Shown here: positions 23,371 to 25,506 of the stretch, one piece after another
How the letters are laid out: each line of letters starts with the position of its first letter
How positions within the stretch are numbered: the stretch's first letter is position 1
Source: an uncultured bacterium
GTDB taxonomy: Bacteria; Poribacteria; WGA-4E; WGA-3G
Reading direction: 5' to 3'
Assembly: GCA_964623585.1 (NCBI GenBank)
Contig: CAZURU010000002.1
Span: 1 to 55,171, forward strand
Length of the DNA stretch: 55,171 bases
The notes under the pieces: model-generated
Database searches by the model: none
What the model was told of the DNA's origin: nothing
What the model saw: only the letters and a program-made list of their open reading frames with translations
Program-made: the position numbers and the translations under genes

Positions 23371-23478
23371 GTTACTAATTTTATGTAGTATAAATCTGAT
23401 TGTCATAAGTCACTTTACAAGTAAATCGCAAAGTCTAATATGCAAGTGAACCTAATCAACAAAATCTAATTACTGAAA

Positions 23479-24612
23479 ATGAGTCAAACACATTTAAAAT
23501 ACGCAGATAGAATCAACTTAGGTAGTTATTATACTCCACCAAAAATAGTAGATCTAGCATGGGAATTGATAGATTCCTATGTAGATACAAGGGTTACTAT
23601 AATTGACAACGCATGTGGATATGGAGATTTTTTAAGAAATTGTGGACAGTCTCTTACAATCGGATGTGATATAGACAAAGATGCGATAGACATAGCAAAA
23701 AAGAATGGGGATAAAGTGTTATTTTTCCAAACGAACTCTTTAAGTAACGTTTCAAGGAAGAAATTTGGTATTCCTGAAGAGCCAAAAAGATTGATTGTCG
23801 TAGGAAATCCACCTTATAATGATAGAACCTCTCGTATTCGCCAAAATATTAAACGGGCCGAATTTGACATAGATAAAGATATAATCTGTCGAGATTTGGG
23901 AATTTCATTTCTTCGTTCTTATAATAAACTTAAGGCGGACCTTGTCTGCGTTTTGCATCCATTATCTTATTTAATTAAACAAGCTAATTTTAGACTATTG
24001 AAGGAGTTTACGGCAAATTATAGATTAGTAGATGGCATACTTATTAGCAGCAGGGAATTTCCAGAATCTTCAAAACTAACCCCTTTTCCAATTATTATTG
24101 CCTTTTATCGGCGAGACTGTCTTGGAATGGATTACAGTTTCATCTGTTCATTCCCATTTAGGGTACTAGACGGTCCAAGGTTCTATCTTAACGATTTTGA
24201 TTACATAACTAGTTATATTAGCAAATATCCATACAAGAATCGTCAGCCATTACCTAATGATTCTTTATTTTTCTGGACAATGAGGGATATAAATGCATTA
24301 AAAAGGAATCGGACATTTGTCGAGAATTACAGCAATAGCACTATCGTAATTGACAAAAAAAAGTTAGATTATTATGTCTATGTAGATGTGTTCAAAAGAA
24401 ATTTGTTTAGGCTGCCATACTATTTTGGGAACTGTGATGTGCCTATTGATGATAAACTTTTTCAGAGTTATAAGAATTATTTCCTTAGAGATGTGATCAG
24501 ACATTACCCTTATTTAAAAGAACACTTACAGATGGATATGGCAGAGAACGGAAATGTAGAACTCCATTTAGATAAGTACTTCAAATTACTATTGGGAAGA
24601 TACCATGTTTGA
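23479..24612 (+). CDS. Gamma-class N6-adenine DNA methyltransferase (TaqI/Eco57I-like layout)
   Basis: 377 aa with motif X-like GSYYTPPKIV, motif I IIDNACGYGDFL and motif IV VVGNPPYN in N-to-C order. The gene looks visibly more AT-rich than the flanking nuo genes. Confidence 0.8.
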   Translation: MSQTHLKYADRINLGSYYTPPKIVDLAWELIDSYVDTRVTIIDNACGYGDFLRNCGQSLTIGCDIDKDAIDIAKKNGDKVLFFQTNSLSNVSRKKFGIPEEPKRLIVVGNPPYNDRTSRIRQNIKRAEFDIDKDIICRDLGISFLRSYNKLKADLVCVLHPLSYLIKQANFRLLKEFTANYRLVDGILISSREFPESSKLTPFPIIIAFYRRDCLGMDYSFICSFPFRVLDGPRFYLNDFDYITSYISKYPYKNRQPLPNDSLFFWTMRDINALKRNRTFVENYSNSTIVIDKKKLDYYVYVDVFKRNLFRLPYYFGNCDVPIDDKLFQSYKNYFLRDVIRHYPYLKEHLQMDMAENGNVELHLDKYFKLLLGRYHV

Positions 24613-25258
24613 TAAAGATAACAAAAGAATTTCAGTAGAAATTCCTCTTGCAACACATACAGGAAAAATAAGGATCAAGTCAAGAAATATGTTTTCTGAT
24701 TATGGTGTACCACATGCCACGAGAAGTAAACCCTTTAATCAAAGTAACTACGTTGAGTGGCAAATAGGTTATGATTTGGAAGAAAAGAAAAAGGACGGTT
24801 CAAGTCTATCTGATATATCGTTTACTGCTTATAACGAAAAGAAAAAAGTGTTATATGAGTTATCTGAATATTTATACTATTTCTATTCTTGGGATATGAT
24901 TACATCTTCAGAACTAAAGGAAACAGTGAAGTTTTTATTGAATATGGAGGAGGATAACTTACTCTCTAATCACCCCGATTGTGAAATTATGAGAACACAT
25001 CCTGTGGAAAAACAAATTAATGACACTACATTCTTTAGCATGACTCTAAAATATCCTCAACTTATCCATAAATTTGGAAAATATGAAATTATTGCGGAGA
25101 TCACTATTAGAGAAAAACAAAGGGCAGTTGGTATTCAACCAATGCTTTACTTATGTTTCCCGATATCAGAACTTAGAGTAAAAGAAAATCTAATTGGTCG
25201 TATAGCACATGCAAAGGAAACAGCAACATTTGTAATTGATGAGACGAACTACGGATAG
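24605..25258 (+). CDS. Hypothetical 217-aa protein co-transcribed with the methyltransferase; candidate cognate restriction endonuclease
   Basis: Its start overlaps the methylase stop by 8 nt. I recognise no family. A possible D57...E78-x-K80 arrangement is only suggestive. Confidence 0.55.
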   Translation: MFDKDNKRISVEIPLATHTGKIRIKSRNMFSDYGVPHATRSKPFNQSNYVEWQIGYDLEEKKKDGSSLSDISFTAYNEKKKVLYELSEYLYYFYSWDMITSSELKETVKFLLNMEEDNLLSNHPDCEIMRTHPVEKQINDTTFFSMTLKYPQLIHKFGKYEIIAEITIREKQRAVGIQPMLYLCFPISELRVKENLIGRIAHAKETATFVIDETNYG

Positions 25259-25506
25259 TTATTGAGATGGTGAAAATATTCGGAATGCTTAGTCCGGCAC
25301 ACCATAAAGATATTCTTGAGATAATTAAAGCGATTTTAGACTATCCTTAACACGAATCAGATTTAGCACACAAGCAGTATATTTTTTAGTTAATCATTTA
25401 GGTTTACAGTATGGCATTATTTCGTAGGTCGGGTAGAGGAACGAAACCCGACAATAGAATTAAATTATAGGTGCTGAGGTAGCACCATCCATTAAAGGAG
25501 TTCTTT

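Follow-up and report, generated by a model that had tools for sequence, protein, structure and literature searches.

A probable PabI-family restriction-modification pair with a frameshifted restriction gene, resident in the complex I operon of a sponge-symbiont poribacterium

Introduction

What kind of system is encoded by two AT-rich genes that lie between nuoL and nuoM, inside the complex I operon of an uncultured poribacterium, and are both of them in working order? The stretch studied here, called the window, comprises nucleotides (nt) 1 to 55,171 of contig CAZURU010000002.1 of assembly GCA_964623585.1; positions are those of its forward strand and are collected in Table 1. It belongs to a metagenome-assembled genome (MAG), G000, which has 910 contigs and 6.6% contamination. 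The first gene, M, encodes a DNA methyltransferase; the second, R, is read as an open reading frame (ORF) of 217 amino acids (aa). An earlier note, drawn from the letters of this DNA, had pointed to an AT-rich methylase and 217-aa pair between nuoL and nuoM, which the ORFs and a computed G+C profile bear out, and had hesitated between a restriction-modification (R-M) system and a novel defence pair. A methylase with a restriction partner is what is found, and the novelty is not, since R belongs to a described family. The pair is very probably a PabI-family Type II R-M system of the bacterial lineage, an old resident of the nuo operon, in which R is frameshifted here and M is intact.

A PabI-family restriction gene and its methylase

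The 217-aa protein matches Pfam PF09522 (RE_R_Pab1) with an E-value of 5e-27 (94.8 bits for a cut-off of 25), the REase_II model of PADLOC (8e-15) and, in a phmmer search of PDB sequences, R.CcoLI (7cfa; 4.8e-38) and R.PabI (2dvy; 6.7e-12). NCBIfam gives no match to it, and its poribacterial homologues are named 'R.Pab1 family restriction endonuclease' by NCBI. An AlphaFold2 model built from 41 sequences (predicted local distance difference test, pLDDT, 90.1; predicted template-modelling score, pTM, 0.81) was compared with the PDB using Foldseek. The 14 matches at E<=1.5e-8 are all chains of the PabI family (R.CcoLI, R.PabI), with a template-modelling (TM) score of 0.76 to 7cfa_A, and the next match is at E=0.13. 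The modelled protein thus appears to adopt the HALFPIPE fold. The suspicion that the partner might not be a PD-(D/E)xK enzyme has held: no Pfam or PDB match to that fold was found, and the model matches only HALFPIPE structures.

HALFPIPE restriction DNA glycosylases bind GTAC, flip its adenine out and cut the N-glycosidic bond of this base by means of a Tyr/His/Asp triad, Y68/H211/D214 in R.PabI and Y52/H222/D225 in R.CcoLI; Lys71 gives the mesophilic enzymes an added apurinic/apyrimidinic (AP) lyase activity (PMC7806768). Residues of R were mapped by HMMER alignments to 7cfa, with the residue roles taken from the same paper. Nine GTAC-reading residues, K21, R23, E51, Q53, I54, Q172, Q178, M180 and Y182, are present in the 217-aa ORF, where they align with K17, R19, E47, Q49, I50, Q158, Q164, M166 and Y168 of R.CcoLI. 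The ORF also holds the catalytic Tyr56 (24770-24772), counterpart of Y52, as well as D57, N77 and K81 (24845-24847), which align with Asp53, Asn67 and the AP-lyase Lys71 of R.CcoLI. The weak D57...E78-x-K80 of the earlier note therefore fell near the real active site (D57 being Asp53, and K81 Lys71) but is not a PD-(D/E)xK motif.

The M protein has the two motifs from which a gamma-class N6-adenine methylase had been proposed, motif I (IIDNACGYGDFL, with DNACGYGDF within) at aa 41-52 and NPPY at aa 110-113 (23806-23817). They are followed by a C-terminal target-recognition region, which is the motif order of the gamma class. M matches the PADLOC model MTase_II PDLC03275 over its full length (7.7e-83) and Pfam N6_Mtase with 24.6 bits for a cut-off of 20.4; its matches in NCBIfam are all sub-threshold, and no sequence relative of M was found in the PDB. 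Its predicted product is GTm6AC. The ratio of nonsynonymous to synonymous divergence (dN/dS) of M against its orthologues is 0.09-0.15, with a synonymous divergence (dS) of about 1 that matches that of nuoL, and M, the ORF of which is intact, is under purifying selection.

The association of the two genes is not peculiar to this operon. Relatives of R are encoded by 80 loci in a scan of one genome per GTDB species, 65 of which have enough upstream DNA for the neighbouring gene to be read. In 57 of these 65 loci, which come from many phyla, a homologue of M (42-75% identity) lies directly upstream on the same strand and ends at most 60 nt from the start of R; in the other eight, the M copy is partial or displaced. 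This order, M then R, is the bacterial PabI arrangement (Kojima and Kobayashi, PMC4615327). In the window, the two + strand ORFs share 8 nt (ATGTTTGA). The closest R loci are found in Candidatus Poribacteria and the remoter ones in Patescibacteria, Clostridia, Verrucomicrobia, Bdellovibrionales and DPANN archaea, MAGs being among them.

Disruption of the restriction gene

The nearest homologues of R (75-79% identity), which are from Candidatus Poribacteria, have 246-248 aa, and close homologues in general 246-251 aa, whereas the ORF of the window ends at 217. Beyond this point, the homologues continue with N-Y-(R/S/Q)-I-V-I-E-M-V-K-I-F-G-M-L-S-P-S-H-H-K-D-I-L and the window encodes the same as IVIEMVKIFGMLSPAHHKDILEIIKAILDYP in the -1 frame. 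R is a gene of about 247 codons, the last 31 of which lie in that frame at 25255-25347, before a stop at 25348-25350. The 217-aa piece and the 3' piece together cover the family alignment with nothing lost, which implies the lack of a single base at about 25253-25255.

This missing base separates R from essential parts of its active site. The catalytic His (25300-25302) and Asp (25309-25311), within ..SPAHHKD.., and the adenine-pocket Phe, tenth of the GTAC-reading residues (F215 of R.CcoLI), are all encoded out of frame, after the stop. In an intact paralogue carried by another contig of the MAG, C366, the corresponding His and Asp align with H222/D225 of R.CcoLI and H211/D214 of R.PabI. The 217-aa product thus does not hold a complete Tyr/His/Asp triad in one polypeptide. 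By descent, the gene belongs to the PabI family, but its annotated product is an incomplete enzyme, and R is predicted to be dead here. The earlier note took the 217-aa ORF as the whole partner gene; with R frameshifted and M intact, the pair is not a working restriction system in the window.

Compared with intact homologues, the 5' piece of R has a dN/dS of 0.14-0.18 and the 3' piece of 0.12-0.26, for 0.14-0.23 between intact pairs. Because the values of both pieces equal those of intact pairs, the disruption seems to be recent on an evolutionary scale.

History of the nuoL-nuoM junction

The age of the cassette was approached by comparison with 24 other species of the same genus and 16 genomes of other genera of the order. 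An intact homologue of M is carried by 19 of the 24 congeners, and none of the 16 genomes of other genera has any. Intact homologues of R are limited to two congeners, G006 and G010, and remnants of R persist in G013 and G016. M follows nuoL, or remains there as a pseudogene, in at least 13 of the 24. The complete order nuoL-M-R(intact)-DUF5069-nuoM is found in G010, and also in OY764073.1; R is lacking from nuoL-M-DUF5069-nuoM in G001, G003, G005, G018, G019 and G021, and extra genes precede M in G008, G012, G015 and G020. M also follows nuoL in G024, and G009 has an M pseudogene at this site. The junction contains DUF5069 only in G002, G006, G011, G013, G016, G022 and G023 and is nearly empty (61-199 bp) in G004, G007, G014 and G017.

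For the same species pairs, the dS of the nuo-locus copies of M (0.37-1.9) is comparable to that of the adjacent nuoL (0.31-1.4), and in a tree of M these copies cluster apart from two other locus groups. Because M dS tracks nuoL dS and the nuo-locus copies group together, the cassette appears to have entered the nuoL-nuoM spacer early in the genus and to have been inherited vertically since then. The window species is sister to G007, whose site is empty, and the next clade consists of G009, whose M pseudogene is 83% identical to the M of the window, and of G014, whose site is also empty. As G009 keeps M at the site, the empty sites in the clade of the window are deletions. In G007, about 96 unrelated nt stand instead of the cassette and homology resumes at 25418; in contigs from two other sponge metagenomes, whose empty sites are deletions too, 62 other nt separate 23360 from 25407. 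Orphan M genes have a dN/dS of 0.10-0.13, which suggests that they are kept by selection after the loss of R.

The earlier note found that the cassette looks foreign, and it could be read as a recently acquired mobile element bounded by an inverted repeat. Its composition is indeed unusual: G+C is 0.31-0.35 over 23250-25350 and 0.42-0.48 in the flanks, and the cassette (23361-25406) has a G+C of 0.324, which is 3.4 standard deviations under the genome mean (0.414, standard deviation 0.026, in 2046-bp windows), only 0.1% of the genome windows being as low. However, the G+C of M orthologues is 0.34-0.38, against 0.42-0.44 for nuoL, in every species examined, so that low G+C characterises the gene family and does not point to recent arrival. 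The empty sites of G007 and of the two other sponge populations, which a recent insertion would also produce, are countered by the M pseudogene that G009 keeps within the same four-species clade, and M occupies the same site in at least 12 congeners with a dS that tracks nuoL. The word foreign holds for the ultimate origin of the cassette only.

The inverted repeat adds little to the case for mobility. The 10-bp repeat reported to bracket the cassette is there and even extends to 11 bp (TAAATCTGATT and AATCAGATTTA). Its probability of arising by chance between the two flanks is about 0.01-0.035: a repeat of at least 10 bp occurs in 3.5% of mononucleotide shuffles of the two non-coding flanks. 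Across the cassette, six pairs of inverted 10-mers are observed for 7.0 expected. Neither arm was found in the orthologous cassette of G010, and the true indel boundaries (about 23361-23364 and 25406-25418) are some 30-50 nt further out than the repeat. As an element terminus it was rejected, being not conserved, placed inside the boundaries and unaccompanied by any excess of inverted 10-mers; it is probably best treated as chance, an option that had been left open from the start. Furthermore, neither a transposase nor a target-site duplication is present. A recently acquired mobile element is thus very improbable, and old residence followed by vertical inheritance is retained.

The junction has received other genes too, and it behaves as a small defence islet that gathers defence-type genes. 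A YhgA-like Transposase_31 protein is encoded there in G008 and G012 (L024:5660-6772, L027), an AAA_21/AAA_15 ATPase with a 157-aa partner without family match in G015 (L030:2195-3813), and a D12-class adenine methylase with a weak EcoRI-like remnant in G020 (L035:5175-6743). A DUF5069 gene of 133-149 aa lies between cassette and nuoM in most species (L012:5532-5930; most of the loci L017-L038), in one or two tandem copies or, in G022, as a single fused ORF of 292 aa; it is missing from the clade of the window (G000, G007, G009, G014).

Could the restriction enzyme still be made?

Two readings would keep the enzyme alive in spite of the missing base. According to the first, R is still produced, either by a ribosomal -1 shift at TAC-GGA-TAG or as a split enzyme, whose 217-aa body would receive His and Asp in trans from a 27-aa peptide (ATG 25267, MVKIFGMLSPAHHKD...). 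A -1 shift right after TAC would yield N-Y-R-I-V-I-E-M, the family consensus; no sign of decay is seen in the downstream piece, which begins translation potential with an ATG of its own, and the region is found in RNA contigs. However, the site (AACTACGGATAG) contains no homopolymer, no X-XXY-YYZ slippery heptamer and no obvious stimulatory structure, and programmed frameshifting was rejected on the first two of these grounds. All intact homologues are one continuous ORF, the ATG at 25267 lacks a strong ribosome-binding site, and the lack of decay in the 3' piece is equally explained by a recent mutation. Continued production of R is thus most unlikely.

The second holds that the base is lost only in the MAG, through an error of sequencing or assembly, and that the R-M system works in full. 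The genome is fragmented and contaminated to the extent given above, and the evidence consists of assembled contigs. Nevertheless, the frameshifted form is found with 100% identity in Logan contigs of SRR22586461, SRR22586457, SRR8304785 and SRR8304786, which come from at least two studies, and in one sponge sample it is present in both metagenome and metatranscriptome contigs. Since the identical sequence was assembled independently in four runs, including an RNA library, a one-off assembly error is very unlikely. Moreover, the site is not a homopolymer, and R has been disrupted independently in other Poribacteria. The artefact is therefore scarcely credible, and a real frameshift in R remains the preferred reading.

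A new nuclease or effector family founded by the 217-aa protein, which the earlier note had envisaged from the absence of a PD-(D/E)xK motif visible by eye, and which the lack of an NCBIfam match might suggest, is next to impossible: the protein is matched strongly and specifically by PF09522, by the crystal structures of R.CcoLI and R.PabI and by PADLOC REase_II.

Decay of R elsewhere and a second PabI-type pair

Other broken copies of R are known in Poribacteria. The disruptions in L102:3001-3737, L050/P0032, L015:6304-6660 and L016:6577-6639 are independent; they comprise a frameshift at about codon 117, a truncation at 228 aa without the C-terminal His and Asp, and two deletion remnants, of 119 and of 21-34 codons, each beside an intact M. 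In isolates of Helicobacter pylori, M is conserved in about 90% and R is functional in about 20% (PMC10273834). The poribacterial pattern, in which M is kept and R decays, matches the one published for PabI systems.

The MAG contains a second pair, on the 5.3-kb contig C366 (G000:C366:340-2221; L014), whose M (377 aa) and R (251 aa) are both intact and are respectively 66% and 69% identical to the copies of the window. In the M tree, the C366 copy is sister to the non-nuo copy of G009. In the same sample, this contig is present in the DNA, at a depth of 24.7 where the window reaches 33.9, and also in the RNA; it comes from either the same population or a co-resident strain. The RNA contig over C366 begins at 266 with adapter sequence, so the 5' end of the transcript may lie 74 nt upstream of M. 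A DUF6794 protein is among the neighbours of this pair.

Layout, transcription and repeats of the locus

Table 1. Features of the nuoL-nuoM junction in the window
Feature	Position	Strand	Comment
nuoL, 640 aa, upstream flank	21448..23370	+	homology to empty-site relatives stops at about 23360-23363
AT-rich cassette, G+C 0.32	23361..25417	+	missing from closest relatives
Inverted repeat, left arm	23391..23401	n/a	probably chance
M, gamma-class N6-adenine DNA methyltransferase, 377 aa, ORF intact	23479..24612	+	bacterial M.PabI-type partner
R, PabI-family restriction DNA glycosylase gene, 5' part (217-aa ORF)	24605..25258	+	
R, frameshift site (..TAC GGA TAG)	25250..25258	+	1 base short compared with every intact homologue
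R, 3' part (IVIEMVKIFGMLSPAHHKDILEIIKAILDYP, then stop)	25255..25350	+	-1 frame relative to the 217-aa ORF
Inverted repeat, right arm	25355..25365	n/a	probably chance; absent from the G010 orthologue
REP-like palindromic element, dispersed	25414..25456	+	core GTCGGGTAGAGGAACGAAACCCGAC at 25428-25452; outside the cassette
nuoM, 527 aa, downstream flank	25507..27090	+	

In a promoter and terminator scan, sites were no more numerous than in shuffled sequences, and on the + strand no terminator separates nuoL from M or R from nuoM. One metatranscriptome contig runs from nuoL to the end of R, and the cassette is probably transcribed by read-through from the nuo promoter. No RNA family of Rfam was found in 23200-25700.

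The repetitive extragenic palindromic (REP)-like element stands just upstream of nuoM, is shared with G007 and is followed by a second hairpin (25470-25486). It is present in at least 64 copies (with at most 3 mismatches) on 57 contigs of the MAG, coincides with depth spikes of 1200-3900 and with contig breaks in several sponge metagenomes, and has a fold z-score of -2.7.

Some other features of the operon were observed in passing. The nuoJ-nuoK spacer (20990-21151) contains a tandemly duplicated unit, with the repeated peptide FKTNQTLCISEVRKPRQQ x2 in an ORF of the minus strand. A CitMHS_2 transporter of 496 aa (PF16980, E 1.7e-175) is encoded at 27090-28580, between nuoM and nuoN, and is found at the same place (74-94% identity) in all the same-genus junctions for which this stretch was fetched; it is a constant member of the operon, which the R-M cassette is not. 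The nuoN of G022 (L037 6417-7831) matches in three pieces in different frames, and this gene may be frameshifted or its assembly wrong.

Discussion

The window pair resembles several described systems to different extents. R.CcoLI/M.CcoLI from Campylobacter coli and R.HpyAXII/M.HpyAXII from H. pylori represent the bacterial PabI lineage. R shares with this type its fold, about 34% identity over the whole length, the gene order on one strand, the mesophile-type insertion that carries Asp53, Asn67 and Lys71, and all ten GTAC-reading residues named for R.CcoLI, of which only the Phe is out of frame. It also shares its evolutionary behaviour, a conserved M beside an often broken R. The window pair differs from this type by its host, which is a sponge-symbiont poribacterium and not an epsilonproteobacterium, by the lack of an in-frame C-terminus and hence of the catalytic His and Asp, by its location within the complex I operon, where it is inherited across the genus, and by the length of the poribacterial R proteins (246-251 aa).

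The resemblance to R.PabI/M.PabI from Pyrococcus abyssi (PDB 2dvy, 3waz) is more distant. The HALFPIPE fold (Foldseek E 4e-11, TM 0.65), the triad and the GTAC recognition residues are common to the family, but identity is only about 24%. The archaeal systems have tail-to-tail genes and a longer methylase, and R.PabI, which is devoid of the beta-sheet that bears the lysine, is weakly active as an AP lyase (PMC7806768, PMC4615327). The locus can also be compared with solitary methyltransferases left by decayed Type II R-M systems, where M is under the same purifying selection (dN/dS 0.1-0.2) once R is gone; unlike in these, the R of the window is almost whole, at an early stage of decay, and a second cognate R is possibly encoded on C366. 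The system is thus of a known kind, at a well-documented stage of decay in which R is being lost and M kept, and it is its host phylum and its residence in the complex I operon that are unusual.

Some observations weigh against this interpretation. GTAC specificity and methylase activity are predictions from the conservation of residues. In the whole genome G000, GTAC has an observed/expected ratio of 0.67, a moderate depletion that is only the fifth lowest of the 16 palindromic 4-mers and is not specific; CTAG is extremely depleted (0.18), GGCC (0.48) and TCGA (0.55) strongly so, and GATC is at 0.64. GTAC avoidance was accordingly rejected as a sign of restriction pressure. The M of the window has the longest terminal branch of the 20 in the tree (0.41, for a median of 0.095) and ranks first for changes at otherwise invariant sites (7 of 178), so that its activity could be altered. 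Relaxed selection was rejected as the cause of this branch, in view of a dN/dS of 0.09-0.15 and a dS of about 1 like that of nuoL; the branch is long because the nearest copy, the nuo-locus pseudogene of G009, was left out of the tree. The frameshift is documented by assembled contigs, in which a minority intact allele would be invisible, and the RNA evidence likewise consists of assembled contigs and whole-contig mean depth, the transcription of M and R being inseparable from that of nuoL. Finally, a co-resident strain is a possible source of C366, whose DNA depth is below that of the window in a contaminated MAG.

The following scenario would agree with the preferred reading, an old PabI-type pair whose R is frameshifted. 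In the intact system, the gamma-class methylase would make GTm6AC, and the HALFPIPE enzyme would flip out and excise the unmethylated adenine of GTAC by its Tyr/His/Asp triad, after which the nearby lysine could cut the abasic site. The cassette would have entered the spacer between nuoL and nuoM early in the genus, where it is probably read through from the nuo promoter. The single-base frameshift, which ends R at codon 217 and puts His and Asp out of frame, is predicted to have killed R, and the locus would now behave as a solitary methylase. The intact C366 pair would make this loss harmless or possibly even favoured: if C366 is in the same population, a functional PabI-type enzyme and two methylases for protection remain in the cell, for which the loss of R at the nuo locus has no cost. 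In this scenario, family membership, fold, the reality of the frameshift, the age of the locus and the repeated loss of R are shown by the present data, whereas GTAC specificity, the activity of M, the inactivity of the 217-aa product and co-transcription are inferred.

Annotators should mark the 217-aa ORF as a frameshifted pseudogene and not as an intact restriction enzyme. A candidate novel defence effector is also removed, since the partner protein is one of the well-characterised base-excision restriction enzymes. For the PabI family, known mainly from Epsilonproteobacteria and hyperthermophilic archaea, the loci surveyed indicate that it is common in sponge-symbiont Poribacteria and also present in many Patescibacteria, Clostridia, Verrucomicrobia and DPANN MAGs. 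M kept and R in decay, as in H. pylori, is a pattern that has arisen independently in this distant phylum, where a flanking housekeeping gene allows it to be dated. An essential respiratory operon has here retained an R-M cassette throughout a whole genus.

A broader proposal, possible but doubtful, is that intergenic junctions of the complex I operon of Poribacteria, such as that between nuoL and nuoM, are protected and strongly transcribed landing pads for R-M and other defence cassettes, and that the GTAC methylase left there has been domesticated, being co-transcribed with complex I and kept by purifying selection throughout the genus after the loss of R. If this were true, the role of M would be that of an epigenetic regulator or of a 'vaccine' against PabI systems that invade again, and the window would catch the very moment of its orphanisation.

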